From: Candidatus Pacearchaeota archaeon UBA73 | Lineage (GTDB): Archaea > Nanobdellota > Nanobdellia > Pacearchaeales > GW2011-AR1 | Direction of reading: 5' to 3' | Assembly: GCA_002496015.1 (NCBI GenBank) | Contig: DAIF01000001.1 | Coordinates: forward strand, 8,752-72,751 | DNA length: 64,000 nt | Shown here: piece by piece, positions 27,004-49,198 of the stretch | Layout of the letters: each line of letters starts with the position of its first letter | Position numbering within the stretch: position 1 is the first letter of the stretch | Position numbers and translations under genes: made by a program | The notes under the pieces: generated by a model | The model's database searches: none | The model's input: the letters and a program-made list of their open reading frames with translations, nothing else | What the model was told of the DNA's origin: nothing

Positions 27004-29796
27004 CTATAAATTGGGTCGTTTAATAAATCTTGTGTCTATCGGGCGCCCTCCTTGCTGTTTTTCTAATTCTTTTCTCACCTTTCTGTTTTCTGCAAACTTG
27101 AACAATGGTATCTCCCACATGCCGGTTCTTTTTCCTTCCAGTTTCCTGAACGCATAAGTTATCTGTTCCGAAGTCCACTTCCGCCCACGAAGCGTTTCTT
27201 TTATTGCTGTATCTTTTAGTCCATTCCTTCTGGAGTTGTAGATGAAGTTCAATAAGTTATACAAGTCATTCGAGTTCGGGAAAAGGTGTTTCTCATAATT
27301 ATGTTTGTACCACCATTGTAACAAGAGATAAACCGCTAGAAAGAAAACAAGTATGATGGATAGGCTTATCAGAAACCTTCTCCAAAGAAAATTTCCCTCG
27401 GGATCGCAATTCTCTAACCAACATTTTATAATCGGTCTTGTGTCAATTCCTAAGCTGGAAGGCGGCGGCGAGATATACACACCAAGATTCATTATCCCCG
27501 GAGAACTCGCTCCAACAATCGCGAATTCCGCACTCGTTATCGGCTCCATCTTTATTTCAGCATACGTCCCCCCACTGACACTCGTCTCTCTGAACCTATC
27601 TCCACCGGAAATAAATGTTAATGCATTCTTGGGATATCCTATAACTAAGTACGCAGAATCTGTTTCAGGATCTTTTTTCTCGACAAGAGTTATTTTATAA
27701 GTCTTAAGTATCTCTGTTTCTTGAATCTCGTTTTTCGCAGAGATTGCTTCAAAAGTTATCTGCACATCATAATGTTCCATCATCCAGCCGAACACACTCG
27801 CTTTTAATTCGTCTTCATCAGGCGGCACTTCATCAATCCCTGCTATTTCCATAACATGCGCCATATTAGCCTTTTCATATCCTATTTCTGCCGGCAGAGT
27901 CCCGGTGGCGCTTGTATAAACAGAACTTGGCAGATCAATGCTTAATAAGTCATCTATGATTGAGATGTAACTGCTCTCCGGAGCATTTTCACTCAATGCT
28001 TCAAACTCCTGTTTCTTAGATTGAATAAAAGATTTTTTGGTTTCAATTCCTAACGCGCTGGATAAGATAGTTCTCACTGCAGTTGGATACGTGCTTATAT
28101 CTGATTCTAAGTTTGCTATCCTCGCTTCATAATCTCTCAGGATAAGACTCGCAGAGGTCTTGGCTTCTCCGACTATTACTGTGAACCTTTTCGTTGAATT
28201 TAAGCCAGAACCCCTCACAAGGGTCACTTTGACAGCGTATTCTCCGTCTGATTCAAAGGTATGCTTCACACTTGTCCCTTGAACTGTGATAGGAGACGCG
28301 CCATCTCCAAATTCCCAAATCGAGTGGGTGACATTGACTGCCGACCTCGCCGTGAAAATAGTCTCTCTGCCGATGTATGCAAATCTCGGTGTGACTTCGA
28401 AAGAAAATCCTATGTCCACATCAATAATCTTTTCAATAACTTCTTCTCCTCCTAAAAACAATCTGAACGTATGTTTTCCATCCTCATTTGGGACTTTGAA
28501 ATCCATTTCTTCTACAGGTATCATCGTCCAACCAGTGCTTACTCTTGCAGGCCTTTCTCGTAGTTCATATATCATCGCAGGGTTTTGACTCCGCCTAGTC
28601 CCCGATCCAATTCTATATCCCAATTTTCCGCCATACAATAATTGCCCTTCAGCAGGCATGCCCCAGATGCTGAATGGAATTACGCAACCATCTTCGCCAG
28701 AGCAATTCATACCATAGGTATAGTTAAGGTACTCTGCCACGTCATCTCTCAGATTTCGGTCTGTTATGGTTTCATAGGTATTTCTGTCAAACCTGACATA
28801 ACTTACGCTCTCAAAACCCCTCGGCTTGATAAACAAATCAAAATCTAATTCAAAATCGTCCTTCGATACTCTATCTCCAGGTTCAAACACTAATCCGCAA
28901 GTCTCTCTGTCATCCTCATTTGTATTTATCGTGAAATAGTCAGCAAATCTTTCCTCAGTATAAACACAGACAAGAGCGTCAAATTTCTCGAGCGCAGAGT
29001 GATTTATCACTACAGGAAATTCCGTGCCTACTGAAAGAGGCAGCCCATTTAACCACCCCCCGCCGTAAGCGTCTCCCCCGTCCAAGGGGTACATTGCAAA
29101 TGCTAAATTACCTCCGCTCTTAAGAACATTAATCTTCCCTCCAATTTCATACGATGCCGCAGGAGGAATGTCTTTCATATACTCACAATACAACTCTCTG
29201 CCTATCGGTACATCTCCTTCCGAATCTTCTTCGTCAAAGCATCCACGATTTTTCAAGGTTATCGGATAAAAGACACTTCCGCAGGTTAAAGAACCGGCGC
29301 GGGGTTTTGTGTTGTAATAATCTATTTTACCATCGTCAAACAAATCAATATATATCTGATTCCAACAGGTTTGGCTTACATAGACATCAACCCAAAATTC
29401 CAACTCGTCAAAGTTTGATACGATTCTGTCAGACTCTTTTATTCTAAAACCATAAGTTCTCTTCTCTTCGCCCAACGTTATTCTCTTAGCAGTCTCTCCG
29501 TTTAGTGCAGCATAATAACTTAGGCAACTTACAGGATCGCAAGTATAAGCACTTCCTTTTGTCAGATTCATCGCATTAAAAACATCAAGCAGCCTTATTT
29601 TCTGGTCATTTAAGCTATTAGTGAAATAGACATTTTCTTGTCTGTCAAAGCTCATATTCAAAATGCCTGAAACCACATCCCCTTCTAGGTAATTTCCATC
29701 GATATAAGAAGAGTTTTTTCTGATTGAGAAATCAGCAGCGCTGACTAAGCTTACTGCCAAAAAAAATCCGACTAAAAATAAACTTCCTTTCTTCAT
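27004..29796 (-). CDS. Large secreted surface protein with C-terminal TM anchor and cytoplasmic tail
   Basis: 930 aa. Signal peptide MKKGSLFLVGFFLAVSLVSA; TM FLISLSIILVFFLAVYLLLQWW near the C-terminus. Confidence 0.6.
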   Translation of the reverse strand: MKKGSLFLVGFFLAVSLVSAADFSIRKNSSYIDGNYLEGDVVSGILNMSFDRQENVYFTNSLNDQKIRLLDVFNAMNLTKGSAYTCDPVSCLSYYAALNGETAKRITLGEEKRTYGFRIKESDRIVSNFDELEFWVDVYVSQTCWNQIYIDLFDDGKIDYYNTKPRAGSLTCGSVFYPITLKNRGCFDEEDSEGDVPIGRELYCEYMKDIPPAASYEIGGKINVLKSGGNLAFAMYPLDGGDAYGGGWLNGLPLSVGTEFPVVINHSALEKFDALVCVYTEERFADYFTINTNEDDRETCGLVFEPGDRVSKDDFELDFDLFIKPRGFESVSYVRFDRNTYETITDRNLRDDVAEYLNYTYGMNCSGEDGCVIPFSIWGMPAEGQLLYGGKLGYRIGSGTRRSQNPAMIYELRERPARVSTGWTMIPVEEMDFKVPNEDGKHTFRLFLGGEEVIEKIIDVDIGFSFEVTPRFAYIGRETIFTARSAVNVTHSIWEFGDGASPITVQGTSVKHTFESDGEYAVKVTLVRGSGLNSTKRFTVIVGEAKTSASLILRDYEARIANLESDISTYPTAVRTILSSALGIETKKSFIQSKKQEFEALSENAPESSYISIIDDLLSIDLPSSVYTSATGTLPAEIGYEKANMAHVMEIAGIDEVPPDEDELKASVFGWMMEHYDVQITFEAISAKNEIQETEILKTYKITLVEKKDPETDSAYLVIGYPKNALTFISGGDRFRETSVSGGTYAEIKMEPITSAEFAIVGASSPGIMNLGVYISPPPSSLGIDTRPIIKCWLENCDPEGNFLWRRFLISLSIILVFFLAVYLLLQWWYKHNYEKHLFPNSNDLYNLLNFIYNSRRNGLKDTAIKETLRGRKWTSEQITYAFRKLEGKRTGMWEIPLFKFAENRKVRKELEKQQGGRPIDTRFIKRPNL

Positions 29797-31511
29797 TTTT
29801 TTCTCATGATAGCATAAATCAAAGTGATTAAAATCGCTGCCAAAACCAATCCAACTGTGCCAATAGCTGGCAGCTCAATAACTGTTGGACACTTAATTTG
29901 TGTTTCACAGGGCTGCCCGTCTCCGCAACCCACGTCACAGGTCCAAGTTTCTCCGGGAGGAATGGTCTTTGGCTCAACTCTCACTTTTCTAAATGGGCTG
30001 CTAGGCCCACAATCTTCCAAAACTGTGTAATCTGACCTACAGGTGCGAGTAGAATCGGATGCGGAATTAAAGTAAAAATAACACTCTCCATTGTTTTCAA
30101 TACCGTCGCCCTCATTCTCATCAAAAGCGCAACCCCATCCAGATAACGTCTCCCCGCCATATCCATTGTTCACTGGATCAGATGCACCAGGAACGCAGTC
30201 TTTCATGCAAAGCTCTCTCCTCATCGAATGATTTTTTACATCTCCAACCGACGGGTTTAGCGGATATACCTTGTTATAGTCCTGACAGCTACTTGGTGCT
30301 AACCAGTATTCTCCTTCCTGAAATTCAAACGGTTCATTATCATTACAGAAACCCCCGGAGCCGATACATCCGTCAAAATTGTAAGTACAACTTGAAGTGC
30401 AATTCAAAGTCCCACTTATATAGTCTCCTGCAGTTACGCAAGTCTCGCCCCCAAAATCGCACTCTCCTCCACTGCAATCACATTCTTCTCCTGCGAGCCG
30501 CTCCAATCTCCCATTGCCACATGCCGATTCGCTATTATCTTGCGGACTATCACAATCCAGATCCTCTCCATAATCTATATCCCCGTCGCCATCATTATCT
30601 CTCCCATCCTGACACTGCGAAGTACCGTCAGACTCGTTATTATCTCCAGGATTATAAGTAGATGGATTTGTCTGATCAGTCCAGCATCCTGGATCCAGAG
30701 AATCAGTTAATCCATCGCCATCATCGTCCATAGTATTGCTGCATTGTGCAAAGACGCACCCTGCAGAGTTGAACCGACATTCGTTCGGATGTTCTGGCGG
30801 AAAACATCCAAGAGTCCCGCCGGCAAACGGGCTGTCAGGTCTGAAGGTTGTGCAGTCTCTACCAGATAAATTGGTTCCATCGCACTCTTCGCCAATCTCA
30901 ATCACTCCATCTCCACAGACAGTAACACAATCCGGACAATTTGCTGGAGTTTCTCCGCGCTCTTCATATTCACAGATTCCGTTGTAATTGCATCTGCAAA
31001 TGAATTCCGAACGCGGCTTGCAACAAATTGAATAGTCATAATGTTTAGTAATTGCCAGATGAGCATTCGTATTTCCACTCAATGTGGTAATCATGCAATA
31101 ACCACTGCTTCCTGGCGCCTCATCGCAACTCTTCCCCCCCGTCTGTAAAAAACACTCGAGGTTTCCAAAACACACATCAGTATATTCTGACGTACTGCCA
31201 GCTGGTCCCTCAGCGTGCGCATCAGTAATGCCCGATAACCTCAGGACAGTATTGGTTCCATCGCATAAGTGGGGGTTGCCCCAAGACGGATAAACTCCTG
31301 AGAAATAATCATAGAAACAGATTTCATATGGATAACCTCCGCTCGCATTCCACTGTTCACCATGCGCATTTTGTAATGAACTTATCCTAAACAATCGCTG
31401 CTCACTGCTCGAACAATTTATCATCTCTATCGCGTTCACCCCATAGACAACAAAAAATATTCCTATTACGGCTAAAACTGAAAGGCGGATATACCCTCTT
31501 TTCATTACCAA
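29793..31511 (-). CDS. Cys-rich surface protein with CGDGxxxxxEECD repeats and Asp-rich (Ca-binding-like) repeats; C-terminal TM
   Basis: 572 aa. CGDGVIEIGEECDGTNLSGRDC; DDDGDGLTDSLDPGC; DGRDNDGDGDIDYGEDLDC. C-terminal LPAIGTVGLVLAAILITLIYAIMRKK. Confidence 0.6.
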   Translation of the reverse strand: MVMKRGYIRLSVLAVIGIFFVVYGVNAIEMINCSSSEQRLFRISSLQNAHGEQWNASGGYPYEICFYDYFSGVYPSWGNPHLCDGTNTVLRLSGITDAHAEGPAGSTSEYTDVCFGNLECFLQTGGKSCDEAPGSSGYCMITTLSGNTNAHLAITKHYDYSICCKPRSEFICRCNYNGICEYEERGETPANCPDCVTVCGDGVIEIGEECDGTNLSGRDCTTFRPDSPFAGGTLGCFPPEHPNECRFNSAGCVFAQCSNTMDDDGDGLTDSLDPGCWTDQTNPSTYNPGDNNESDGTSQCQDGRDNDGDGDIDYGEDLDCDSPQDNSESACGNGRLERLAGEECDCSGGECDFGGETCVTAGDYISGTLNCTSSCTYNFDGCIGSGGFCNDNEPFEFQEGEYWLAPSSCQDYNKVYPLNPSVGDVKNHSMRRELCMKDCVPGASDPVNNGYGGETLSGWGCAFDENEGDGIENNGECYFYFNSASDSTRTCRSDYTVLEDCGPSSPFRKVRVEPKTIPPGETWTCDVGCGDGQPCETQIKCPTVIELPAIGTVGLVLAAILITLIYAIMRKK

Positions 31512-31545
31512 CTCAATGAATCGAACTTTATAAAGCTTATCGGAA

Positions 31546-31974
31546 TCAAATCTCTTTTCTCCACATAAACACCTTTACTTTTTTTGGTTCGACGCTTTCA
31601 TTTTTTATGCTTCCACTTATTACTCTTTCTGAAGAGTATATGTCTTGTTCCGTGTTAGGATAAGGTTCAAGAAAACATACTTCTGTTAGGTTGCATATTT
31701 TCACCGAAATTTCAAACGCAGGGTTTTTAATTTTTGCCTCCAGCGCCAGTTTAAGCTGGTTCTCTAGCACTTCTTCATCTTCTCTCTCTGCGATTTTTTC
31801 TCTGAACGTCAAGTTTCTTGCTAGCTCGTCCATCAGGGGAGGCACTTCTCTGCCAATGTCTCTTCTTTCAGGAATATCTCTCTGAGCAGAGAGGAATACT
31901 AATGCTACTAATATTATTATGACTGCGACCGTGGCTTCAACAATTTTCAAAAATCCTCTTTTGTCCATTACCAT
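31546..31974 (-). CDS. Archaeal type IV pilin-like protein
   Basis: MVMDKRGFLKIVEATVAVIIILVALVFLSAQ: class III signal. Confidence 0.6.
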   Translation of the reverse strand: MVMDKRGFLKIVEATVAVIIILVALVFLSAQRDIPERRDIGREVPPLMDELARNLTFREKIAEREDEEVLENQLKLALEAKIKNPAFEISVKICNLTEVCFLEPYPNTEQDIYSSERVISGSIKNESVEPKKVKVFMWRKEI

Positions 31975-32684
31975 ACTTTCACGATTAGGTCTGCAAAAGT
32001 AACTGAGCCATCTTCTCGCAGAACCTCAACTCTTTTTTTCTCCGAAAATATTTCAAAATTATCCGGAATGGAATTTTCCGCAACTATCGAGTCTCCATTA
32101 TCAAACTCCAACGAAAATCCAAAATCTGCTCTGTCCGGTAGGTTGAAATTACTTTGGCTTTTCAAACCTCTGTAATCTGCATAATAAGCCTGATTTAGCA
32201 TTTTAAACTTTCTTTCAGAAATAACTTCTCTGGCTTCCGAGGAACCTATGCGATAGTATGTTTCATTGTGCTCCGCAGTTTCAGATAATGTGTCCTCTGA
32301 GAATTCCTCTCCAAAGACTACATAGATAAAGTCTTCCCCCACCCAGTTTTGAGAAGAGATATAAATTAATTCTCCGTTTGTCCCTCCTCTGGACGAATTT
32401 AAAATTCTCCCATCATACGTCAGAATAGTCGTATCCCCCGTCACTCCTGAGAAGTTCAGCGCTATCTCGCCGGACATTATTAGCGCACCATTGACATTCA
32501 CGGAAAAAAATTCTAAGCTGGTGCTCGTATTCTTTTCAATCTCCCTGAATGCATAGGAGATTGTTGTGCTCACAATCCTCGTGCCGTCTCCCGAATTAAA
32601 TAAATAAAGTCCGAAACCAACTGCAGTTATGAAAAGCACAAAAGATAATATTACCTCGATATGACTTATCCCTCTTTTCTTCAT
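31968..32684 (-). CDS. Archaeal type IV pilin-like protein (start refined to internal Met)
   Basis: ORF track gives 31968..33011, but the class III signal MKKRGISHIEVILSFVLFITAVGFGLYLF begins at residue 110. The upstream part overlaps the + strand methyltransferase gene. Confidence 0.55.
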   Translation of the reverse strand: MKKRGISHIEVILSFVLFITAVGFGLYLFNSGDGTRIVSTTISYAFREIEKNTSTSLEFFSVNVNGALIMSGEIALNFSGVTGDTTILTYDGRILNSSRGGTNGELIYISSQNWVGEDFIYVVFGEEFSEDTLSETAEHNETYYRIGSSEAREVISERKFKMLNQAYYADYRGLKSQSNFNLPDRADFGFSLEFDNGDSIVAENSIPDNFEIFSEKKRVEVLREDGSVTFADLIVKVW

Positions 32685-32735
32685 AACAAAAAGGCAGCTA
32701 ACTAGATTTATATACATTTTCTTACATCTTGTAAT

Positions 32736-33509
32736 ATGCTTCATGCCAAGATAAGACGCGAAATTATTCTCAAAATCAAGGAGAAAAGAGAACTCGCTGG
32801 TCTGGCAGACAGTGTAGTCGAAAATAATCTGGACGATTTTCTCAGAAAGAATAGGATTTCTCTCGCAGCTCTTTCCGAGAAAGAGAAAAAAATAATAGTA
32901 AAAGAAGTCAGAAGCACACTTCGGCTTCTCGCAGGAAGGTTTCGTAAGAGTGCGAAAAATAAGAATCATACAATTGACTTTGAGAACATCAACGAGCTTC
33001 TTCGCACCCACTCCTCAACAGCCGAAAGATTAAACTTCTATCCCAAATTCAAGGAAAAACTGCTTGAGATGAAGCCTGCCTCAATTCTAGACCTCGGCTG
33101 TGGTCTCAATCCAATCGCGCTCTCTCTCAAGGGAGTGGTTTACTATGCATCAGATATAAATATCAAAGACCTGTCTATTATCTCAGCTTACTTTAAGAAA
33201 CATCGCATAAAAGGCAAGACATTCGTTTTAGATTTACAAAAAATAGACTCTCCCTTACCAAATGCTGACGTTACTTTGTTATTGAAGTTGTTGGATGTGA
33301 TTGACCCAAAACATACGCTCTCAGAAAACATCCTTAATAAGATTCCATCTAAGAGAGTTATAGTGAGTTTCTCGACAAGAAAACTATCAGGTCGGAAAAT
33401 GAATTTCCCGCGCAGATACTGGTTTGAAAAACTTCTCTCAAAGCTTTATTACCATTACTACACGATCGAGACAGACAACGAGATATTCTACTTCATTACA
33501 AAACCCTAA
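32736..33509 (+). CDS. RmtB/ArmA (FmrO)-family 16S rRNA (guanine-N7) methyltransferase homolog
   Basis: 257 aa. HSSTAERL...ILDLGCGLNPIAL and VIVSFSTRKLSGRKMNFPRRYWFE resemble the aminoglycoside-resistance m7G1405 methyltransferases as recalled (HASTKERL...VLDIACGLNPLAL...AVSFPTRSLGGRGKGM..WFE). Recall-based. Confidence 0.55.
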   Translation: MLHAKIRREIILKIKEKRELAGLADSVVENNLDDFLRKNRISLAALSEKEKKIIVKEVRSTLRLLAGRFRKSAKNKNHTIDFENINELLRTHSSTAERLNFYPKFKEKLLEMKPASILDLGCGLNPIALSLKGVVYYASDINIKDLSIISAYFKKHRIKGKTFVLDLQKIDSPLPNADVTLLLKLLDVIDPKHTLSENILNKIPSKRVIVSFSTRKLSGRKMNFPRRYWFEKLLSKLYYHYYTIETDNEIFYFITKP

Positions 33510-34375
33510 GCTGCACCCAGAAACAACCTTGCACCGCTCGAGATTAAAAACGCTGCAATTACCATTATGAAAGAATGTTTAAGCCCGCTCTTTAAACTTC
33601 CCTCGGTCAATTTACCGACAACAAGTCCTATGAAAAACCCCTGCGTTATCAGTAGGTAAAGGAAAGGTGCGCTAAATTGCGAGGCGTCTATTTCTTGTCC
33701 TCCACCGCCAAAAATTCCTATTCCTAAATCCTGCCCCGTAGTCGAAATTCCTCCCAATCCTCCCGCCCCCGCAGTTAGTGGAATAATCTTGAATTCCATG
33801 ACAAGGATTATCCCAATGAATATGAAGAAGATTATATAACCCTGCACTATCAGCCCATACACTGCAGACTTCCTCTCTTTTTTCAGTTTCTCCACCTCAG
33901 CAATGGACTTCGCTGTCGAGTCAAGGATATAGTCTATGTCTCCTCCGGCTTTCTCAGCCTCTTTTATCAGACCAACTGCTCTTTTTACAACTACGCTGTC
34001 AATTTCCTTAGAGAATGTCTTGAGTGCCTCGCTCAGCGGAATACCTAATTCTATCTGATTAGACAATTTCTCTATATTGGGATTGAGAACTCCAAAATCC
34101 TTTCTCTTCATATTAACGATGGCTTTGCTTACAGGCGTACCGGCAGATACAGACTCAGCAAGATTCCTAGTGAACTCTAAGAACATTTCATTAGTTCTCT
34201 CAGACTTTCCGCTCTCAATCGCGATTCCAATGATGAACGGCAGCACAACAACCCCCAGTGCGATGCCTATAAGGAACAACAACATCTGTTGGTTGCTCCT
34301 GAAGAACGCAACATCCAGTGCTATGATTAATACTCCCGCGATTATTCCAAACCAGTGCATTTTTTTTAGTTTCAT
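33506..34375 (-). CDS. FlaJ/TadC-like pilus platform membrane protein, C-terminal half
   Basis: Polytopic membrane protein with a cytoplasmic T2SS-F-like segment (AESVSAGTPVSKAI...). Follows the N-terminal half, separated by a stop and 1 nt. Confidence 0.55.
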   Translation of the reverse strand: MKLKKMHWFGIIAGVLIIALDVAFFRSNQQMLLFLIGIALGVVVLPFIIGIAIESGKSERTNEMFLEFTRNLAESVSAGTPVSKAIVNMKRKDFGVLNPNIEKLSNQIELGIPLSEALKTFSKEIDSVVVKRAVGLIKEAEKAGGDIDYILDSTAKSIAEVEKLKKERKSAVYGLIVQGYIIFFIFIGIILVMEFKIIPLTAGAGGLGGISTTGQDLGIGIFGGGGQEIDASQFSAPFLYLLITQGFFIGLVVGKLTEGSLKSGLKHSFIMVIAAFLISSGARLFLGAA

Positions 34376-34376
34376 G

Positions 34377-35672
34377 TTAGTATGCCGGCTGCTTTATTTG
34401 CAAAAACACCAGGAATATGACATTTAAAACCGCGATGATTCCTACAGCCATAATGCTAAGCTGAGTGGGACCAAACCCCACATTCAATCCTGAAATTGCC
34501 ATCATAACTATCATCAATAAAAATACCATTGGCGCTGCAATGACAATGCTGATATAAATGTCAAGAAACGTTTCGACAAGTCTGGTGTATTTTTCTCTTT
34601 CTAATCTGTATGACAACAGAAGGCTCTCCGCTCTTTTCTCAAAATATTCCGACAAGTTCGCTCCGGATGTTATCGTTACTGAAAGCCCTGCGAACAGTTC
34701 GGCAAGCTTTTCACTCGGAGCAGTTTTTGCGGCATTGTTTAATGCAGTTGTCAGGTCATATCCGTAGAGATTTATCTGATTAAGCACCTTGCGTATTTCT
34801 TTCCTGAGGAAGGGATAATCTCTGCTCAATCCTATGATGCGGAAAATCTCTGTCGGCTCTATTCCCGCACCGGTAATCGCGCTCATATGAATAACTGCAA
34901 AAGGAAGTTCCTGATCAATCCTTGTTCCAAGAGATTTTTTCTCAGTTGAAGGATAATAATAAATCGCCAAAAACGTTAGGATAGGTATAGCTATTGGTAG
35001 CAAGATAAGTTTTGATGCGGCCGCAAGATACCCTGATGTTCTCAACTCCAAAAATGGCCATACTGGTATCGTGCTAAAAAACGTGAAGAACAGCCCCGCA
35101 AAAAACGCAACAACAAAAGCTATCAAAACAGTGAGATATATCATGGCGACATACGATTCAAATAAAATTTCCATATTTGCCTTTCGCAGGCTTTCACCAA
35201 GGTTCCGAAAGCTCCCCTTTCTTACAATCTTGCTAGCTGCGGAAAGAAAAAGCCGATTCGCTAATTTCAGATACCCCCTAGATGCCTTGAACTCCGTGAA
35301 CTTATCTTGCTCTTCTATGTCCCTCAGTTTTATTTTTCTCATGAAGTTATCGCTGATATTCAACTCCTTCAAGAATTTTGCTTTGTCCTTTGAGTGCAGC
35401 ACGACCTCTAATCCCGAGCCAAGTCCGCGGTATTTTACAAGCTCTAACTTCTTGTCCTTGCCCGAAGGGAGCTTCTTTGCCACTGAGATGTCTTTGAGAA
35501 GTGCCAGAGTGTTGTCATTTATTATCCTCATTCCTTCAACGATAGAATTTATCGCGCCGTCTAAAAGTTTCTTCTCATCGTCTGCAGCAGAGTCATATCG
35601 AGCAGCATAGCTCGCAATCTCTCTGAGCATAGATATTTCTGTTTCAATATTTTTCCTAAGCTCGTCTATCAT
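34377..35672 (-). CDS. FlaJ/TadC-like pilus platform membrane protein, N-terminal half
   Basis: 431 aa. Cytoplasmic T2SS-F-like domain followed by TM helices; typical platform partner of the FlaI/TadA ATPase. Confidence 0.55.
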   Translation of the reverse strand: MIDELRKNIETEISMLREIASYAARYDSAADDEKKLLDGAINSIVEGMRIINDNTLALLKDISVAKKLPSGKDKKLELVKYRGLGSGLEVVLHSKDKAKFLKELNISDNFMRKIKLRDIEEQDKFTEFKASRGYLKLANRLFLSAASKIVRKGSFRNLGESLRKANMEILFESYVAMIYLTVLIAFVVAFFAGLFFTFFSTIPVWPFLELRTSGYLAAASKLILLPIAIPILTFLAIYYYPSTEKKSLGTRIDQELPFAVIHMSAITGAGIEPTEIFRIIGLSRDYPFLRKEIRKVLNQINLYGYDLTTALNNAAKTAPSEKLAELFAGLSVTITSGANLSEYFEKRAESLLLSYRLEREKYTRLVETFLDIYISIVIAAPMVFLLMIVMMAISGLNVGFGPTQLSIMAVGIIAVLNVIFLVFLQIKQPAY

Positions 35673-35830: not shown

Positions 35831-35909
35831 AAGCTAAAAAGAAAAATCTTGTTTATATAGTTTTCAATTTCTCTGGCTTCGCTAAAACCTCACTTGCGCT
35901 CAAGTTCAG

Positions 35910-37439: not shown

Positions 37440-37466
37440 AGAAAAAAACGAACTATTTATTTAAAA

Positions 37467-39068: not shown

Positions 39069-39088
39069 ATGTTTAAAAACTTATTGAA

Positions 39089-40560: not shown

Positions 40561-41288
40561 AAAGAAAATTTGCCCTACTGATCTCTCTGCTGCTCACCCT
40601 CTTAGTGGCTTCAAACATCTTCCTTTTTAATTTGGGCTCTCAAAGAAAGACAGTTTACGTTGTCAGAGTCATAGACGGAGACACCTTTGAATCTGACCAA
40701 GGTACATTAAGACTGGCAAACATAAACACTCCGGAGAAGTCCGAGAAGGGGTATGAAGAAGCTAAACTCTTCATATCGAGATTTCAGGACTCAGAAGTTC
40801 AGATAGAGGAACTCTCTACTGACCGGTATGGCAGAATTCTCGCAAGAGTCTATACTCCGGATTACTTGAATCTGGTTCTGGTCAAACAGGGGCTGGCAAG
40901 AAAATTTCTCGTTCATGAGTCCGAACTTTCTCTTTTCGATGTCGCTGAGAAAGATGCTGTCAATTCAGGCAGGGGATTGTGGAAACACTCCTCGCTCTAC
41001 AACTGTTTTGAAGTTAGTATCTTCCCTTCAGAAGAAATTCTGCAAATCGAAAACAAGTGCGGAGAAACTAATATGGGCGGCTTCGTTATCACAGACGAAA
41101 GCAGAAAAAAATATAAGTTCCCAAATATTATCTTAAGGAAGATAACGCTGCACACAGCCTCGGGAATTGACAACAGCTCGGATTTGTTCTGGGGTAGCAA
41201 CGGCGATGTCTGGAACAATGATCGCGACACAGTTTATATCTTGGACGCAGAAGGCAGACTTGTATATCATCGCTCTTACGGCTATTAG
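40557..41288 (+). CDS. Secreted staphylococcal-nuclease-like thermonuclease with C-terminal extension
   Basis: Signal/TM LLISLLLTLLVASNIFL; SNase motif VIDGDTFESDQGTLRLANINTPEK...DRYGRILARVY. Confidence 0.65.
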   Translation: MKRKFALLISLLLTLLVASNIFLFNLGSQRKTVYVVRVIDGDTFESDQGTLRLANINTPEKSEKGYEEAKLFISRFQDSEVQIEELSTDRYGRILARVYTPDYLNLVLVKQGLARKFLVHESELSLFDVAEKDAVNSGRGLWKHSSLYNCFEVSIFPSEEILQIENKCGETNMGGFVITDESRKKYKFPNIILRKITLHTASGIDNSSDLFWGSNGDVWNNDRDTVYILDAEGRLVYHRSYGY

Positions 41289-41934
41289 TTTAATCTGTCT
41301 TCCGCTCGCTTCTTCTCTTGAGCTTTCTTTTGATTATCCAAAAGATGTAAAAATTAACAAGGAATTCACAGTTTCAATAGAAGCAGATTCTTCCGAACAG
41401 CATGACGTGAAAGTTTTTGTTCACAAGTCAGAAGATGACAAGATTGACCGAAACGAATATATCTCTGAGATTTACAACGACGGCTGGAAAGATTCTTATC
41501 TTTACATTAAAGGTTCATTTCCAAAACAATCCAACTATAAAATAAGGGTAACCTCCTCGCCGGGACAGCAGGAGATTTGCGCGAGGCTGCGCAAGACTGG
41601 CTCTACAAGTTTTTCGACTCAATGCGAAAGAATTAATGTCGGAGAAGATGAACCTGAAGAAGAGGAAGATACTTCGAAGGAAGCTAAAAAAGAGTTAGAA
41701 AGGGTGATTGTAAAAGAAGAGACAGACAGCTCTCCAACAGAATCGGCAGTTCAGGAATTCAGGCAACTCTCTCAAAATCAGGAGAGAATAGTCCTTGGCT
41801 CCAAGCCATTAAACGCGCCCACGCAAAATAAAGTTATAATCACCCCGGAGGGAACCAAGAAAAAATTCCTCATCTATGGTTTTACAGGATTTTGCGTTCT
41901 TGTCTTAGTTCTTCTTTCTCTGCGAAAGCTTTAA
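41218..41934 (+). CDS. Membrane-anchored extracellular protein (hypothetical); start uncertain
   Basis: ORF track 41167..41934. N-terminal hydrophobic LYIIALTAISLICLPLASS; C-terminal TM FLIYGFTGFCVLVLVLLSL. Confidence 0.4.
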   Translation: MIATQFISWTQKADLYIIALTAISLICLPLASSLELSFDYPKDVKINKEFTVSIEADSSEQHDVKVFVHKSEDDKIDRNEYISEIYNDGWKDSYLYIKGSFPKQSNYKIRVTSSPGQQEICARLRKTGSTSFSTQCERINVGEDEPEEEEDTSKEAKKELERVIVKEETDSSPTESAVQEFRQLSQNQERIVLGSKPLNAPTQNKVIITPEGTKKKFLIYGFTGFCVLVLVLLSLRKL

Positions 41935-41971
41935 TGGCTAACTTTAAAAACCTATATCCCCCTCTTCTTTA

Positions 41972-42472
41972 ATGGCAAAGATAGAAGCTTCGTTAATCCT
42001 CGAAATTCTCGGAAGACCGAAAGAGAATGTCTCTGCTGCTATGGAAACTTTGATAAATCGTTTGTCGTTGGAAAAGGGAGTTAAGGTGTTAAACAAGACT
42101 CTTCACGAACCTGTGCCGGTTGAGAAATCAGACCTATTCACTTCATTCGCTGAAGTCGATGTCGAGCTGGACTCCTTTATGACTTACGTAGCGGTCATCT
42201 TTGGGCATATGCCTTCCAACATTCAGATTACCTCTCCGGAAAAAATGACCCTTAACAACATGGAACTTAACGAGATTGGAAATGCTCTGGTTCAGAGATT
42301 GCACCATTACGATGCTGTGACTAAAAATGTCCTTGTCGAAAGAAACTTTTATGCAAAAAAGCTTCAGGAAATAGCTCCGCATCTTTTCATAAAACAAGGG
42401 CCTGCTCCTGCACAAGAGAAAACCCCTCCCAAAGATAAACCAAAAAAATCAAAGAAGTCTAAGAAGAATTAA
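41972..42472 (+). CDS. Hypothetical protein with Lys-rich C-terminal tail
   Basis: 166 aa, no motif recognised; ends in PKDKPKKSKKSKKN. Confidence 0.4.
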   Translation: MAKIEASLILEILGRPKENVSAAMETLINRLSLEKGVKVLNKTLHEPVPVEKSDLFTSFAEVDVELDSFMTYVAVIFGHMPSNIQITSPEKMTLNNMELNEIGNALVQRLHHYDAVTKNVLVERNFYAKKLQEIAPHLFIKQGPAPAQEKTPPKDKPKKSKKSKKN

Positions 42473-44340
42473 GGCAGGTTCTTTCTGGCAGAGTTTATCT
42501 TGCTTTGCAGGGGGCTTCCAGATGATTTTCCTGCTTTCTTATATTTCATAAAAACAAATACTACAACTATCAGGACAACTCCAGCTACCAAATATCCGAC
42601 CCACATCCAGGACCCTCCGCCGCCCCCGCCATCGGAACAGGTCCCAACGCAACAACTGCTCCTGTCAATCGTCGCGACCACATTTCCATCGCAGGTCTGT
42701 CCTGCTCCACACTCGATTCCCAGAAGTTCAGAACAATAATACGAGGGTCCGCTGGAACTGCTGTTCCGCGAATATTCAGTGATTGCTCCGGACTCCGTAT
42801 CAGTGAAATTAAATTCCAGCAACAAATATTCAAAGGAGTCTTCGGCATACGCGATAACAACCCCTTTGAATGGGTGCCCCCTCCACACATCATTTACAGT
42901 CACATTAAAACTCGCGCTTTCATTCACACTGATATTTATATCCTGATATGGGACTATCATAAATTTAGACGGATTGAAATCCAGCCTTAATCCTACGATT
43001 TCACTGTCTCCAGTATTTGTGATTCTAAAACGATATGTTGAAAAGCCCCGACTCAGAAAAACCGTGCTCCGAATCTCTGCAGGATCTAACGCAAATGAAG
43101 GCGGGCCCGGTAGCGGAATTAAAAAACACTCTGTGAGGTTGAATCTACACTCGTCGGACATACAACTAAGGTTTCCCCCGTCATATCCAAGGCTCGTGCA
43201 ATTTCCCATGCTTAAATTGTTTCCATCGCACTCTTCACTTCCGGTCACTATTCCATCTCCGCAAACCGCAACGACCTCCGCGCTCGCATAGCAACTATTG
43301 TTATACCAATATCCCTTGGCGTCAAGACAGGTTCCCGCAGTTAAACACAGTTCCGGATAGTTCTCTCCACATGTCGCAGAAGCGTTTTTATTGCACGTAT
43401 TGTTATACCAATATCCTCCGGCATCAATACAGGTTCCTTGGGTTAGACAAAGCTCAACGTGTTGAGAATCACAAACAGCTCCTTGTTCATATCTATTGCA
43501 CGTATTGTTATACCAATGCCCCCCCGCCCCTGTGCAATTCGCTTGAGTCAGACAAAGGCTCAAATGTTCTGAGTCGCATGAGCTTGGAGAGTCTGAGGGA
43601 AGTTCACAGAAGGAGGTGTCAAATGCCAAACAACTGCTCGCACACTGAAGCTGCCCGGAAATGAATCCTCCGGGAACCGAAGTGCAAGTCTTCCCATCAA
43701 GGTTTGCACCGTCACAAACTTCCCTGTCACTTATCAGTCCATCGCCGCAGATATACCTCTGCCCCACAATATACAATGGAATTTGATACCTTCCAAAATT
43801 CATTAAAATCTGCTGCGTCCCCAGAATTCCGCTTATCGAAAAATCAACATAATTTGTCCCCGGATATAATGTTATCGTTCGCGATTCCGGAAAGTCCACC
43901 TGAACATCCATTCCAGAGTAAGCCGTCGCCGCAATCTCAAAATTTTTATTCGCAATTACAAATCCGGGCGCAACAGAAAAATCAATCATCGGCCCCTGCA
44001 CAGTAAAATCTTTTCTATATTCGACAACCTCCGGCACGCCATCCACAAGAGCCACAACATTTCTGATAATCAGACTGTAATTTCCGGAGTTGGCAGGTGC
44101 AATTATCCAAATAAAATATCTATTCCCTAGTTTTCCTATATCAAACTGTGCAGCTACGTCTAAATGTCCGTCCCTCACTACCCTTACCTGCTCGGCTCTG
44201 ATTGGCGCAAGGATTCCGCCAGTGATTTCCCCGATCATTGTTTCACGCGGCGCGTACGAGTCTCTTATTGTCGAGGAGACCGCACTGACTTCAGGGATCA
44301 TCAACCAGATTATCGCCAGCAAAAAAATGAATCTCTTCAT
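42469..44340 (-). CDS. Cys-rich surface protein (CGDGxxxxxEECD repeat family) with C-terminal TM
   Basis: 623 aa. Signal MKRFIFLLAIIWLMIPEVSA. CGDGLISDREVCDGANLDGKTC and CGDGIVTGSEECDGNNLSMGNC. Three tandem C..Q..C.GAGG.WYNN.C modules. TM WMWVGYLVAGVVLIVVVFVF. Confidence 0.6.
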   Translation of the reverse strand: MKRFIFLLAIIWLMIPEVSAVSSTIRDSYAPRETMIGEITGGILAPIRAEQVRVVRDGHLDVAAQFDIGKLGNRYFIWIIAPANSGNYSLIIRNVVALVDGVPEVVEYRKDFTVQGPMIDFSVAPGFVIANKNFEIAATAYSGMDVQVDFPESRTITLYPGTNYVDFSISGILGTQQILMNFGRYQIPLYIVGQRYICGDGLISDREVCDGANLDGKTCTSVPGGFISGQLQCASSCLAFDTSFCELPSDSPSSCDSEHLSLCLTQANCTGAGGHWYNNTCNRYEQGAVCDSQHVELCLTQGTCIDAGGYWYNNTCNKNASATCGENYPELCLTAGTCLDAKGYWYNNSCYASAEVVAVCGDGIVTGSEECDGNNLSMGNCTSLGYDGGNLSCMSDECRFNLTECFLIPLPGPPSFALDPAEIRSTVFLSRGFSTYRFRITNTGDSEIVGLRLDFNPSKFMIVPYQDINISVNESASFNVTVNDVWRGHPFKGVVIAYAEDSFEYLLLEFNFTDTESGAITEYSRNSSSSGPSYYCSELLGIECGAGQTCDGNVVATIDRSSCCVGTCSDGGGGGGSWMWVGYLVAGVVLIVVVFVFMKYKKAGKSSGSPLQSKINSARKNLP

Positions 44341-44341
44341 C

Positions 44342-46717
44342 TTATTTACTCATCTCTCTCAGCTTTTTGAGTGTCTCTTCCGCTTCTTTGTCTTTGGCAC
44401 TCTTCGGTTCAGCTCCTGCGGGCGGCGATGCTGCCGGGCGCACCATTCCGGGTCGCATCATTGGCCCTCCTCCCATAACTGGCCTCATCGCTCCAGGCAT
44501 GCCAAATCTTGGCGGAGGTCTTCTTGACATGCTCGCACCAGGCGGCGGACCACCTTGTCCAACTTTAGAAGATTTTGCCTTACCTCTCATCTGGAACCAC
44601 CAGACTCTGAGTTTGTCGCGATACACAATTCCCAAAACAACAATAACTATTAAGACAAGCAGCACGACTATCCAAATCCAAAGGCTGCTCCCTCCGCCAC
44701 TGGCAGTCACGCACCTGCCTGCTGAGCATTCCCTTCCGCTGCCGCAATCGTCATCATCATTACACTCAGAACTCGATTCTATCACACACATCCCTACACT
44801 GTTGCATATCCTTCCCGCAGGGCAATCATCATTCGAGGCGCAACCAACGTTACTCTCTTCGCACGTTCCGACAACACAACAAGGCCCATCTTTTGACTCG
44901 ACTGTCGCCGTTGTGCACGGAGCATCCCATGGGCAAACTGTCCCAGACAAGCTGGTGCAGGTCACTTCAGTTACTTGAGCGGTACAACAGTATTCAAGGT
45001 GGCTATTGCAAACGTGAGTTGACTGTGGATAATAACTTCCACCCACATCTTGACAAGCCCACATACTAGGAACACAGTACAATCCCGATAATTCACAATC
45101 GGTCAATAGGCCTGGATTGTAAGGTCCACCTCCCGACTGGTTTGTTTGATTTGTCGTTTCATTTTCTGGTCCCGGTGGAAGAGGTCCGCCACTGGAGTAA
45201 CACAAGCTAACGTTGAAAGTTAAACATCCGGGCATGCACCCTAGAGTGCCGCCAGCATAACCAATATCTGAGCTGTCACACTCAGTGTTGTTCAACTCTA
45301 TTGGACTAGTGCAAACCCCGTCTGGTCCACAATCGCAAACTTCACTTCCAGTTACCATTCCATCTCCGCATACTTGATTCACGCTTCCGCTACAGTCTTC
45401 CACATTGAGAGTGCAATTTGCATAGCAGGCTAAGTCTCCACCGCTAAATCCTTTTGAGATGCAAGTCTCATCTTTCAGATCAGTTCCATCGCACGCTTCT
45501 CCACCGTTAGCCACACCATCTCCGCAGATAATACAATCTCCTGGACAGTTCTGCGAGGTCTCTCCGGTACCACAAGCTCCATCCCCGCAGAATCCTTGGC
45601 TTCTCGGCCAATGCGCCGCATAGATGATAAATGCAGTGTCTCTGATGCTCCCTCCATTCCAGCATCCGCTTTCATCCTGATTTATAAACAGGTAATTTAA
45701 TGTTCTCGCGTTATCTATCTCCGGCGAGTCGGCTCCGCCCAATGCGAGCATCGCAAGCGCAGTATCATAAAATTTATTGTATGGAGTAGAGGTCATCTGC
45801 CAATATGCCCCTTCTGGTCGGATTCTCTGACTGCCAATTATTTTTGCGTAATGCTCCTCTCCTCCTTGATAGATTGCGATGAGAAACGCGCTCGGAAAAT
45901 ACCTTTCATTATCTGCCGCCAGCGCTCTCAAATACGGCGCATACTCGCCGATATCCTCATCATTCGCATATAATGCAGCAGCAGCCCACAAGCTCCCTTC
46001 GTAATTACAGCTGCTTCCGTCTTGGAAGCATTTTGCAGTTATTCTTTCGGTTGTCCACGAGCCCGCTCCCGCTCCATGAGTTTGCGGCGAGATGTAAATA
46101 GCTCCTCCAGTCTCTTTCTCGTAAAGAAGATTTGTTTTGAATCCCTTGTCGCACTGAACGCTGAATGTTTTGTCAAGACAGTTGTTCCCGATTCTCATCC
46201 AGTACCCTGAAGGAGTTATGCTCAGGCAGTTTCCCGGGCTTCCGGATAGTTTCATATCTTCGTCGATTATGACGGATTTATCGCTGTCGTCATAATTTAT
46301 CTTGCAACTCGCAGGTTGGTTATCGTCAATGATTATTTGTAAATACCAGGTCATCTGTTGCGTAACTCCGCTTCTAGACTTCAACCATGCAGTTATATTC
46401 CCGATATTCTCCCCCATTCTTATTTTGGCGAGTGCAACTTGTGCAGTGGTTCTCACAGTGCAACCAGAATTCGGCCAGCAAAACTCAGAACCGCTTTTTA
46501 ACTGATTTATCGTGTCGTTTATCTTCGGATTCGGAGTCTTCGCCATCGCGGCAAAAACTGCATCCTCAAGAGACAAACTCGAAGTCTCAACCCTGTTGTC
46601 TAAACAAGTAAATGCCTGGTTGATGTCAGTGACGTGATCTGCTGAACCAGCAATAACAAATCCTACGCACAACAGGGCCAGCGCAAAAACCGCCCATGCA
46701 AACACCTTTTTTCTCAT
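44342..46717 (-). CDS. Surface protein with terpenoid-cyclase/prenyltransferase-like (alpha-alpha toroid) repeats, Cys-rich repeats, TM and Pro/Gly/Met-rich cytoplasmic tail
   Basis: Start refined to MRKKVFAWAVFALALLCVGFVIAG (ORF track to 46777). QDESGCWNGGSIRDTAFIIYAA resembles QxxDGGW cyclase repeats. CGDGVANGGEACDGTDL and CGDGMVTGSEVCD. TM LWIWIVVLLVLIVIVVLGIV. Tail PPPRFGMPGAMRPVMGGGPMMRPGMVRP. Confidence 0.55.
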   Translation of the reverse strand: MRKKVFAWAVFALALLCVGFVIAGSADHVTDINQAFTCLDNRVETSSLSLEDAVFAAMAKTPNPKINDTINQLKSGSEFCWPNSGCTVRTTAQVALAKIRMGENIGNITAWLKSRSGVTQQMTWYLQIIIDDNQPASCKINYDDSDKSVIIDEDMKLSGSPGNCLSITPSGYWMRIGNNCLDKTFSVQCDKGFKTNLLYEKETGGAIYISPQTHGAGAGSWTTERITAKCFQDGSSCNYEGSLWAAAALYANDEDIGEYAPYLRALAADNERYFPSAFLIAIYQGGEEHYAKIIGSQRIRPEGAYWQMTSTPYNKFYDTALAMLALGGADSPEIDNARTLNYLFINQDESGCWNGGSIRDTAFIIYAAHWPRSQGFCGDGACGTGETSQNCPGDCIICGDGVANGGEACDGTDLKDETCISKGFSGGDLACYANCTLNVEDCSGSVNQVCGDGMVTGSEVCDCGPDGVCTSPIELNNTECDSSDIGYAGGTLGCMPGCLTFNVSLCYSSGGPLPPGPENETTNQTNQSGGGPYNPGLLTDCELSGLYCVPSMWACQDVGGSYYPQSTHVCNSHLEYCCTAQVTEVTCTSLSGTVCPWDAPCTTATVESKDGPCCVVGTCEESNVGCASNDDCPAGRICNSVGMCVIESSSECNDDDDCGSGRECSAGRCVTASGGGSSLWIWIVVLLVLIVIVVLGIVYRDKLRVWWFQMRGKAKSSKVGQGGPPPGASMSRRPPPRFGMPGAMRPVMGGGPMMRPGMVRPAASPPAGAEPKSAKDKEAEETLKKLREMSK

Positions 46718-46739
46718 CTCTTTTTTAGGCGTAAGTTGT

Positions 46740-48350: not shown

Positions 48351-48436
48351 ACTTTTCCAAAGACCTCACTTTTAAAATTATTGTTATATTCTCCCACAAC
48401 AACAATCTTTTTAATACTGCCATCTTATAAAAACCT

Positions 48437-49168: not shown

Positions 49169-49198
49169 TTATTTATACTTCTTTCTCTTCAGATAAAA

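Follow-up and report, generated by a model that had tools for sequence, protein, structure and literature searches.

Predicted surface proteins of a Pacearchaeota/Woesearchaeota-type archaeon that share a six-cysteine DUF4215-type module

The locus and its gene pairs

The window, as the whole stretch of DNA analysed here is called, comprises 64 kb from a tiny symbiotic archaeon of the Pacearchaeota/Woesearchaeota type (Nanoarchaeota, DPANN). We identified genes for three Cys-rich proteins with N-glycosylation sequons (A, B and C) and for a PKD-domain protein.

27004..29796, minus strand: PKD-domain membrane protein, 930 aa (Pfam PKD match)
29793..31505, minus strand: protein A, 570 aa, ATG start at 31505
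42469..44340, minus strand: protein B, 623 aa, with signal peptide, conserved N-domain, modules, TM helix and a short tail ending KNLP
44342..46717, minus strand: protein C, 791 aa, ATG at 46717

An earlier note on this DNA had described A, B and C as secreted, TM-anchored proteins. All three open reading frames exist on the minus strand where they were placed, and the topology stands, as each protein has a hydrophobic signal-like N-terminal segment and a single C-terminal TM helix. The reading frame of A from a TTG covers 29793..31511; orthologues support the ATG at 31505 (MKRGY...). That of C can be extended to a GTG at 46777 or 46753, and the ATG at 46717 agrees with the public annotation of 791 aa.

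C and B are adjacent and separated by the single nucleotide reported earlier (the junction reads TAA-G-ATG). At least 334 Nanoarchaeota species-representative genomes contain a relative of C. The N-domain of B was found by tblastn in 70 of 82 related loci that carry C. B follows C in the same orientation in 65 of 69 loci, and in 38 it lies within 150 nt. C and B are an ancient gene pair that is usually co-directional and often translationally coupled.

A and the PKD gene are also a conserved, translationally coupled pair. The ATG of the PKD gene overlaps the stop codon of A (ATGA, 4 nt), an overlap kept in the window and in the related loci L002, L003 and L086. The pair closes a minus-strand run with three pilin-like genes, a T2SSE ATPase, two T2SSF genes and two more genes with class III signal peptides, and the same order of pilus genes and A-PKD is found in two relatives (L002 and L003). 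In L086, RtcB/archease and FtsZ, rather than pilus genes, precede A-PKD; in L085, unrelated genes lie between A, the PKD gene and the pilus genes. The block that is constant across loci is A-PKD-GTPase-OapB-OapC.

These four genes evolve faster than any others in the region: when each is compared with its counterpart in one and the same relative, A is 44%, the PKD protein 55%, B 56% and C 59% identical, and housekeeping neighbours 62-89%. Horizontal acquisition of the locus, or a viral island, was rejected because of the conserved synteny with relatives.

Domain anatomy of A, B and C

Protein A consists of a signal peptide, a head of three repeats (the NAH domain), two DUF4215-type modules around acidic Cys repeats, and a C-terminal domain followed by the protein end.

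30996..31421, minus strand: NAH domain, residues 29-170, three repeats of ~45 aa with the motif (S/T)x(T/S)(N/D)AH(A/G)E
30750..30923, minus strand: DUF4215-type module 1, residues 195-252 (motif and unit alignment; Pfam DUF4215 16.8 bits)
30537..30743, minus strand: acidic double-disulfide (MopE / TSP3-like) repeats, residues 255-323 (NF033662)
30363..30527, minus strand: DUF4215-type module 2, CGNG variant, residues 327-381 (motif and unit alignment)
29886..30353, minus strand: conserved C-terminal ectodomain, residues 385-540, FC.DN.PF...SPSSCQDYN.VYP...DCVPGASDPVNNGYGG (invariant columns)
29796..29873, minus strand: LPAIG motif, TM helix and RKK at the protein end (alignment and topology)

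The three NAH repeats match one another with hhalign probabilities of 97%, 83% and 84%, and H48, H97 and H149 are invariant in the alignment of A orthologues. A phmmer search of 1.84 billion representatives identified relatives in 817 clusters at E<=1e-3, and a Pfam search gave no match. NAH is an unrecognised extracellular triple-repeat domain of about 800 sequence clusters that has no Pfam family. Asp-rich stretches had been noticed in A, and were located as DDDGDGLTD and DNDGDGDID. The region that contains them matches NF033662 at 29.4 bits (E 4.9e-7), under the cut-off of 41; it varies among orthologues and is replaced in several. The C-terminal ectodomain is modelled with a pLDDT of 80-90, and structure, Pfam and PDB comparisons found no fold or family match for it.

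The end of A is tripartite (...CPTVIELPAIG-TVGLVLAAILITLIYAIM-RKK), with a short motif, a TM helix and a basic cluster, as in the C-terminal sorting signals of sortases, exosortases and archaeosortases. Within the window only A carries the motif, and no NCBIfam CTERM model matched A at E<=0.1. Among 114 NAH-domain proteins with a C-terminal TM helix, 84 end in an LPFFG-type motif, the TM helix and basic residues. A reading of low probability is that this end would serve as a new DPANN-specific protein-sorting signal.

In protein B, the N-domain is followed by three GGYWYN modules with a DUF4215 module on either side, then by a second conserved domain (residues 412-520), a Cys-knot and the TM helix.

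43756..44277, minus strand: conserved N-terminal domain, residues 22-195 (tblastn, related loci)
43606..43752, minus strand: DUF4215-type module 1, residues 197-245 (TIGR02232, motif, unit alignment)
43285..43581, minus strand: three tandem C..LCLT..C..AGG(Y/H)WYNN.C modules, residues 254-352 (motif location, orthologue alignment)
43123..43266, minus strand: DUF4215-type module 2, residues 359-406 (Pfam, motif, unit alignment)

The N-terminal domain is what all the order retains of B. The head domains of B have no match in Pfam or PDB, and 15 N-x-S/T sequons were counted in the protein. The three tandem WYNN modules seen earlier are present; their number ranges from 2 to 5 among B orthologues, and the module also occurs in some C orthologues (P0013, P0014, P0016).

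In protein C, the signal peptide and toroid head are followed by a CGDGxCxxGETxxNCPxDC motif, by a pair of DUF4215 modules and, after a linker, by a stalk, the TM helix and a tail.

45602..46630, minus strand: (alpha/alpha)6 toroid head, residues 30-372 (fold test)
46019..46372, minus strand: beta-rich insertion inside the toroid, residues ~116-233 (~118 residues)
45389..45529, minus strand: DUF4215-type module 1, residues 397-443 (motif and unit alignment)
45197..45373, minus strand: DUF4215-type module 2, residues 449-507, with a CDCGPDGVC insertion (motif and unit alignment)
44705..45100, minus strand: membrane-proximal Cys-rich stalk, residues 540-671, conserved across the family (invariant Cys columns)
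44345..44683, minus strand: TM helix (679-701) and conserved cytoplasmic tail (orthologue alignment)

The alpha-toroid region and the Pro/Met/Gly-rich cytoplasmic tail that the earlier note had assigned to C were both recovered, the former as an (alpha/alpha)6 toroid fold with one QW motif (YLFINQDESGCW, residues 342-353). Q347, G351 and W353 of this motif are invariant or nearly so, and it drives the match of the head profile to squalene-hopene cyclase (E 6e-4). E240 and D318 of the head are invariant, as are several Trp and Tyr residues and, among 26 closer orthologues, D360. Conserved DTA helix starts (KFYDTALA, SIRDTAF) lack a preceding Asp pair, and neither DxDD(TA) nor a CGEQ thioester was found in C or the family consensus. 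Thus, a terpene cyclase or a thioester protein was rejected. Pfam gave no toroid superfamily match for C of the window, and among 53 orthologues there were weak matches to TED_complement in 3 and to SQHop_cyclase_C in 12. Identity of the head to every structural neighbour is 19% or less.

The stalk scores 22.6 bits against DUF7107 (cut-off 24.6), which matches 15 of 26 orthologues. Conserved parts of the tail are DKLRVWWF..RGK, RRPPPRFG and a C-terminal helix (...EETLKKLREMSK); of 76 complete orthologues, 68 retain the C-terminal motif.

Pfam and NCBIfam searches for the head families, run on A, B and C and on sets of 26, 19, 18 and 53 orthologues, returned sub-threshold matches only. Profile searches of PDB gave nothing apart from the QW-motif match of the deeper C head profile, and no S-layer relatives of A, B or C were found in PDB by sequence. 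Literature searches, which covered cysteine-rich and surface proteins of DPANN archaea as well as S-layers and pili of Pacearchaeota, gave no description of these proteins.

Identity and distribution of the shared module

The CGDG-type repeat that had been said to link the three reading frames is common to them. In a six-frame translation of the 64 kb window, CG[DN]G.{3,8}E.CD matches six times, two per protein, and nowhere outside A, B and C; the pattern was absent from 200 DNA shuffles and from 2000 residue shuffles of the three proteins. An alignment of the repeat units, the kind of check suggested earlier, gives 11 invariant columns for the six units (~50 aa each), 5 of them Cys. The consensus is a six-cysteine module of ~50 residues with the core CG[DN]G-x5-7-E-x-CD. 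The units are adjacent in C only, and other modules intervene in A and B. AF2 models of the repeat regions are of moderate confidence (pLDDT 50-80).

We identified the module as the long form of DUF4215 / TIGR02232, the "Myxococcus cysteine-rich repeat", a resemblance already pointed out in the earlier note. B is the only protein above the TIGR02232 cut-off (24.7 vs 20.8), and the best single unit, A module 1, scores 18.2. Pfam DUF4215 scores are 16.8 bits for A and 17.4 for B (threshold 27), with no match in C. In hhalign, a profile of 105 archaeal units and one of 85 units from Pfam-annotated bacterial DUF4215 proteins align over 48 columns (probability 98.9%, E 1e-17); both sets were picked by a regular expression on the N-terminal motif, and the independent evidence lies in the C-terminal half, which this expression did not select. 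The only paper that we found to mention DUF4215 gives its function as unknown (10.1101/2023.03.06.531300).

The earlier proposal that A, B and C are a paralogous family fails. BLASTP matches among the three (E 1e-8 to 1e-9) are restricted to the repeat units, and because of this paralogy was rejected. The proteins fall into three separate orthologue sets, each with its own head domains. They are three different conserved "hypothetical" surface proteins and not one gene family.

Among 76 complete C orthologues, the module was identified in 4 with a strict pattern and in 7 with a loose one; among 65 complete B orthologues, it was identified in 5-6. It is present in only some 5-10% of C and B orthologues, so in these proteins it is an optional, lineage-specific insert, made only in one small subclade together with the GGYWYN modules. 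Its absence from the other ~90-95%, including some close C orthologues (P0012, P0019, P0025-27), argues that neither the identity of these proteins nor their function is set by it. Conserved domains flank the insertion sites: the head and the membrane-proximal stalk in C, the N-terminal and second conserved domains in B. Median orthologue lengths are 621 aa for C and 410 aa for B, compared with 791 and 623 aa here. DUF4215-type units are far commoner in the A family (P0199, P0223, P0256, P0270) than in the B and C families, and because they are so much more widespread there, those in A may be more than an optional insert.

Possible roles and known systems

We consider it fairly probable that A, B and C are three different, vertically inherited type-I membrane surface proteins that share a mobile module acting as a spacer. 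Judged from its position, its dispensability and its cysteine pattern, the module is most likely a small, rigid, disulfide-braced spacer. Such modules would lengthen the stalks and carry binding heads further from the membrane, so that binding would be a matter for the heads and not the repeats. C would present its toroid head on a disulfide-rich stalk. This non-cyclase, non-thioester toroid with conserved aromatic and acidic residues might bind a glycan or a hydrophobic molecule. B would display its own conserved N-terminal domain, and A the triple NAH-repeat head and a second domain for which there is no fold match. From gene order we infer that the C-B and A-PKD pairs work as membrane-anchored envelope complexes; gene order is weaker evidence for a functional link here because the whole region is syntenic in relatives. 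The host-interaction or cell-envelope role suggested earlier is a reasonable reading, and the proteins may serve in envelope structure or in host or ligand binding.

Several other readings have been weighed. If A, B and C were a paralogous adhesin family, the repeats could be acidic metal- or ligand-binding units that mediate host contact. All three proteins do have the repeat and are anchored at the surface, the acidic E-x-C-D-G core and the Asp-rich repeats of A resemble Ca2+-binding motifs, and DUF4215 is found elsewhere in adhesive and secreted proteins. We regard this as quite improbable, however, as the similarity is confined to the repeat, there are two copies per protein here and 10-15 in myxobacterial proteins, and the ~90-95% of B and C orthologues that lack the repeat keep heads, stalk, TM helix and tail. 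The toroid head of C might instead be an enzyme with envelope material, of the host or of the cell itself, as its substrate, either a glycoside hydrolase of GH76 or GH8 type or a terpenoid-modifying enzyme. The invariant acids and Trp/Tyr residues would suit a catalytic site of this kind, but with no DxDD, no GH family match at any threshold, only the weak SQHop_cyclase_C matches and such low identity to any structural neighbour, we give an enzyme a slim chance.

It is unlikely, in our view, that C and B are the main S-layer-like structural proteins of the envelope in this archaeal order, a two-component, TM-anchored lattice that follows the logic of SlaA/SlaB and has no specific ligand. The near-universal pair is confined to a single locus at a conserved position, with two adjacent genes that are frequently coupled; C and B each combine a signal peptide with a C-terminal TM helix, and B is rich in sequons. 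Near-universal conservation at a single locus agrees equally well with a structural part in the envelope and with a binding function. Against a lattice, C and B match no S-layer family in Pfam or NCBIfam, both are TM-anchored, unlike a canopy plus stalk, and the 90-residue conserved cytoplasmic tail of C with its terminal helix is unexpected in a passive lattice protein. A and the PKD protein could belong to the archaeal type IV pilus machine encoded next to them, as accessory components such as a tip adhesin or an anchoring platform, given that they close the pilus gene run in the window and in two relatives. This is distinctly unlikely. The linkage is missing in L086 and interrupted in L085, and the conserved block extends from A-PKD to OapC and not to the pilus genes. 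A starts MKRGYIRLSVLAVIGIFFVVYGVNA, a Sec-type signal peptide and no class III (prepilin) signal, ahead of a large ectodomain and the C-terminal TM helix; signals of the KRG(I/F)S type are present in the five pilin-like genes nearby. As a pilin, A was rejected because of its type of signal peptide.

The spacer reading could be extended, as a speculation to which we attach little probability. C-B, and perhaps A-PKD, would then form a new, order-wide envelope apparatus in which the terpenoid-cyclase-like, non-catalytic toroid, extended on its disulfide stalk, captures a host-derived isoprenoid lipid or glycan and the tail of C (RRPPPRFG ... EETLKKLKEMSK) couples capture to a cytoplasmic partner. 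The sorting signal proposed for the LPFFG end of the A / NAH-domain family would be a separate matter. To our knowledge, Pacearchaeota/Woesearchaeota-type DPANN archaea are generally regarded as incapable of lipid synthesis of their own, and we know of no cultivated member. The C-B and A-PKD pairs and the NAH domain are envelope or host-contact candidates for these archaea, and the toroid head is one for ligand-binding tests. Their value is mainly as experimental targets, as nothing here is mechanistically surprising. The behaviour of DUF4215 as a portable insert, gained or lost by surface proteins, is a clue to the role of a widespread domain.

The repeats of Myxococcota (DUF4215, PF13948; TIGR02232) have the same core, CG(D/N)G-x5-7-E-x-CD-G, the same long-form tail, ...L.G..C...G...G.L.C...C.F....C, and a secreted or surface location, as here. 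In bacterial DUF4215 proteins, 10-15 units follow one another in tandem, with RCC1, SRCR or PPC domains fused to them, whereas the units here come in twos, in an archaeal host, as lineage-specific inserts in otherwise repeat-free orthologues, and score under the Pfam gathering value of 27. The acidic units of A match MopE-like (PF11617, NF033662) and thrombospondin type 3 repeats in the pattern C-x-D-x-D-N-D-G-D-G-x-x-D...C, but remain under the curated cut-off in a region that is variable.

With the toroids of terpenoid cyclases, prenyltransferases and thioester proteins (squalene-hopene cyclase, drimenyl diphosphate synthase, the TED of C3d/CD109/alpha-2-macroglobulin) the head of C shares Y-L-x3-Q-x3-G-x-W and DTA-type helix starts. 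It differs in being extracellular, disulfide-bonded and TM-anchored, in its beta-rich insertion and in the absence of DxDD and CGEQ. Compared with the SlaA/SlaB loci of Sulfolobales and with other archaeal surface glycoproteins anchored at the C-terminus, C-B have no sequence or family similarity, both partners are TM-anchored, the tail of C is long and the extracellular parts are Cys-rich. The C-B and SlaA/SlaB-type loci are alike in having two adjacent co-directional genes for sequon-rich secreted proteins with C-terminal TM anchoring, and both are conserved across an order.

Three membrane proteins and their common repeat

We identified the three minus-strand ORFs of the earlier note in the window, two of them with revised or possibly revised starts:

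29793..31505, minus strand, protein A, 570 aa
42469..44340, minus strand, protein B, 623 aa
44342..46717, minus strand, protein C, 791 aa

For A, orthologues back an ATG at 31505 rather than the TTG at 31511 first proposed. The true start of C may be the GTG at 46753, because KVFKQLTP, part of the peptide KVFKQLTPKKE encoded upstream of its ATG (window 46717..46777), is kept in several orthologues; a start there would overlap the end of a primase-like gene. C and B are separated by a single nucleotide (TAA-G-ATG), as had been noted. Each protein has a signal-like hydrophobic N-terminus and one C-terminal TM helix (predicted), in line with the secreted, anchored form proposed. They are three separate type-I membrane proteins, and their ectodomains, rich in cysteine, are predicted to be extracellular.

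The pattern CG[DN]G.{3,8}E.CD has six matches when the window is translated in all six frames, two apiece in A, B and C. It was absent from 200 block-wise DNA shuffles and from 2000 residue shuffles of A, B and C in which cysteine content was kept. Alignment of the six units of ~50 residues gave 11 invariant columns and the consensus vCGDGxxxGgEeCDGxNLxGxtCtSxGxxFxGGtLxCxSxxCtFNxxxC. The likeness to the Myxococcus repeat is borne out by TIGR02232 ("cysteine-rich acidic repeat", NCBIfam), which scores 24.7 in B against a cut-off of 20.8 (single units reach at most 18.2). Pfam DUF4215 scores 16.8 in A and 17.4 in B (threshold 27), with no reported match in C. More distantly, B matches proteins from Myxococcota that carry a DUF4215 annotation. 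We also compared a profile of 105 units from archaeal orthologues with one of 85 units from nine bacterial DUF4215-annotated proteins (hhalign probability 98.9%, E 1e-17, 48 columns); the aligned columns take in the C-terminal half, which lies outside selection by the extraction pattern. Because of these scores, the Myxococcota matches and the profile match, we assign the module to DUF4215 as a long form. A profile search of the PDB returned no solved structure for it, and the one paper found to mention it (10.1101/2023.03.06.531300) gives its function as unknown.

The proposal that A, B and C form a paralogous family did not hold. Pairwise BLASTP matches (E 1e-8 to 1e-9) lie only in the repeat units, with nothing significant outside them. 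Full-length orthologues form a separate set for each protein, numbering ~18-25 for C, 19 for B and ~20 for A (34-76% identity), and the conserved domains differ from set to set. As judged by these comparisons, the three are not paralogues; what they have in common is a mobile DUF4215 module, dispensable in B and C.

Proteins C and B

Residues 30-370 of C are helical in an AlphaFold2 model built with 26 sequences (pLDDT ~90), with a beta-rich insertion at ~116-233. An alpha-toroid region had been suggested here. Invariant residues of the head are E240, D318, D360 (among the 26 closer orthologues), W81, W124, W244, W306, W353 and Y239. A profile of 53 orthologous heads (residues 30-372 in C) matches squalene-hopene cyclases at E 6e-4, a match that stems from repeated alignment of a single QW-type motif, YLFINQDESGCW. 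Weak matches to SQHop_cyclase_C were found in 12 of the 53 heads and to TED_complement in three, and to neither in the window protein itself. Sequence support for a toroid head is thus weak but consistent. Neither DxDD, the motif of class II cyclases, nor the CGEQ of thioester proteins is present, and the modelled head is a toroid without known catalytic or thioester motifs.

The head of C is followed by a CGDGxCxxGETxxNCPxDC motif and the two DUF4215 units; a linker of low complexity then leads to a conserved stalk that is rich in cysteine and DUF7107-like (22.6, cut-off 24.6). The protein ends in a TM helix and a cytoplasmic tail of 90 residues, the Pro/Met/Gly-rich tail reported earlier:

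44345..44614, minus strand, cytoplasmic tail of C, with DKLRVWWF, RRPPPRFG and a terminal amphipathic helix ...EETLKKLKEMSK conserved throughout the order

Of 76 complete orthologues, 68 retain the motif at the end of the tail. Conservation of the tail across the order suggests a cytoplasmic binding partner.

B has a conserved domain at its N-terminus (22-195). Two DUF4215 units come next, with the three tandem C..LCLT..C..AGG(Y/H)WYNN.C (GGYWYN) modules already described between them; then follow another conserved domain (~412-520), a C...CC..C knot also present in C, a TM helix and a short tail with KNLP at its end. No Pfam family or PDB relative was found for its non-repeat parts.

With each species represented by one genome, a scan found relatives of C encoded in at least 334 genomes. 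All of the loci kept from it (80/80) carry DPANN labels or are unclassified (Nanoarchaeota, Pacearchaeota, Woesearchaeota, Parvarchaeota, "archaeon"). The C head is present in 82 fetched loci and the N-terminal domain of B in 70; B is co-stranded with C in 65 of 69 loci, and lies within 150 nt of it in 38. Of 76 complete C orthologues (median length 621 aa; 791 aa in the window), only 4 carry the repeat by a strict pattern and only 7 by a loose one; repeats or GGYWYN modules are found in only 5-6 of 65 complete B orthologues (median 410 aa, against 623 aa). Because so few orthologues carry them and the medians are shorter, we regard the repeats and GGYWYN modules of B and C as inserts limited to a small subclade containing the window. 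They sit between conserved domains: in C where the head meets the stalk, in B after the N-terminal domain and before the second conserved one. GGYWYN modules vary from 2 to 5 copies across B orthologues and occur also in the C orthologues P0013, P0014 and P0016; module exchange among these surface proteins is visible. DUF4215-type units are widespread across the A family, so the reading as an optional insert holds firmly for B and C alone.

Protein A, the PKD protein and the pilus locus

30996..31421, minus strand, triple NAH-repeat domain (A residues 29-170)
29796..29873, minus strand, C-terminal end of A (CPTVIELPAIG, TM helix, RKK)

The N-terminal 140 residues of A consist of three ~45-residue repeats, each with (T/S)NAH(A/G)E and one invariant histidine (His48, His97, His149); profile comparisons among them give 97%, 83% and 84%. 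No Pfam model matches this domain, and no known fold was detectable. Run exhaustively against 1.84 billion cluster representatives, phmmer gave 817 proteins at E<=1e-3, one of them source-named Diapherotrites; at E<=1e-10 there are 377. In multidomain surface proteins the neighbours of the NAH domain are PKD, LamG, Kelch, GEVED, Ig-like and MopE-type domains. The rest of A comprises two DUF4215 units, on either side of a variable region of acidic double-disulfide type (NF033662 29.4, cut-off 41), and then a conserved C-terminal domain. The Asp-rich stretches reported for A were recovered as DDDGDGLTD and DNDGDGDID. Among A/NAH members with a C-terminal TM, 84 of 114 end in (C)P...(E/Q)LPFFG, a TM with a conserved IY and a basic cluster; P0295, P0321 and P0317 are among those with the LPFFG-type end. 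This tripartite C-terminus looks like a sorting signal, and it matched no described CTERM model.

Directly after A, with an ATGA overlap, is a 930-aa PKD membrane protein (27004..29796, minus strand). The overlap is also found in the related loci L002 and L003 and in the distant L086. Upstream of A is a pilus-like locus, linkage to which is absent in L086 and broken up in L085:

31546..39068, minus strand, archaeal type IV pilus-like locus
39050, 38560 and 38003 (likely starts), minus strand, three pilin-like genes
35910..37439, minus strand, T2SSE ATPase
34377..35672 and 33506..34375, minus strand, two T2SSF genes
Within the locus, minus strand, two other genes whose signal peptides are of class III (MKKRGISHIEV... 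and MDKRGFLKIVEAT...)

The 347-aa mechanical ORF at 31968..33011 (minus strand) is over-extended, and overlaps an opposite-strand gene for an FmrO-type rRNA methyltransferase (32736..33509, plus strand). Translation really begins at the ATG at 32684, which yields a protein of 238 aa (orthologues, 238-239 aa).

Genomic setting and possible roles

41167..41934, plus strand, small protein between the pilus locus and B, with a hydrophobic segment at the N-terminus and a TM helix at the C-terminus
25.5-26.4 kb of the window, OapB/OapC

The window is archaeal (G+C ~41%), with genes for OapB/OapC, an archaeal CCA-adding enzyme, PCNA, a primase-like protein and a Holliday-junction-resolvase-like protein as well as the pilus-like locus. 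Source-named homologues of A, B and C all come from metagenome-assembled genomes of Nanoarchaeota, Pacearchaeota, Woesearchaeota or unclassified "archaeon", and all are annotated as "hypothetical protein". Sequences identical to the three are recorded on one 133,786-bp NCBI contig (P0001, P0121, P0159).

Cumulative GC skew has its minimum at ~48000..52000, where gene orientation changes from the minus to the plus strand near the primase-like, PCNA and resolvase genes; a replication origin may lie nearby. Five large ORFs (561-681 aa) without a Pfam match occupy 471..11188. The N-termini of four of them resemble signal peptides, and the one at 7332..9176 contains 24 cysteines. Uncharacterised secreted proteins appear to be plentiful in the window.

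A genomic island is ruled out, as synteny with relatives extends over the whole region of 25-50 kb; A, B and C are therefore core genes. Identity to one relative is 44% for A, 56% for B, 59% for C and 55% for the PKD protein, compared with 62-89% for housekeeping neighbours, as would be expected for exposed proteins. The region's fastest-evolving gene is 41167..41934 (41% identity), for which no family match was found.

The DUF4215 modules probably act as disulfide-braced spacers lifting the heads above the membrane, where the heads would bind ligands. C-B and A-PKD are two conserved gene pairs, and each may encode a complex. The role may be either structural in the envelope (S-layer-like) or in host or ligand binding. 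The conserved cytoplasmic tail of C speaks against a purely passive lattice, and near-universal conservation argues for a core function of C-B.

The repeat is a known domain and the toroid a member of a known superfamily, and Cys-rich anchored surface proteins are not surprising in DPANN archaea. New are the non-paralogy of A, B and C, the lineage-specific pattern of insertion, the order-wide C-B and A-PKD pairs and the unrecognised NAH domain family. The value of these proteins is as a useful target set, rather than as a surprise.
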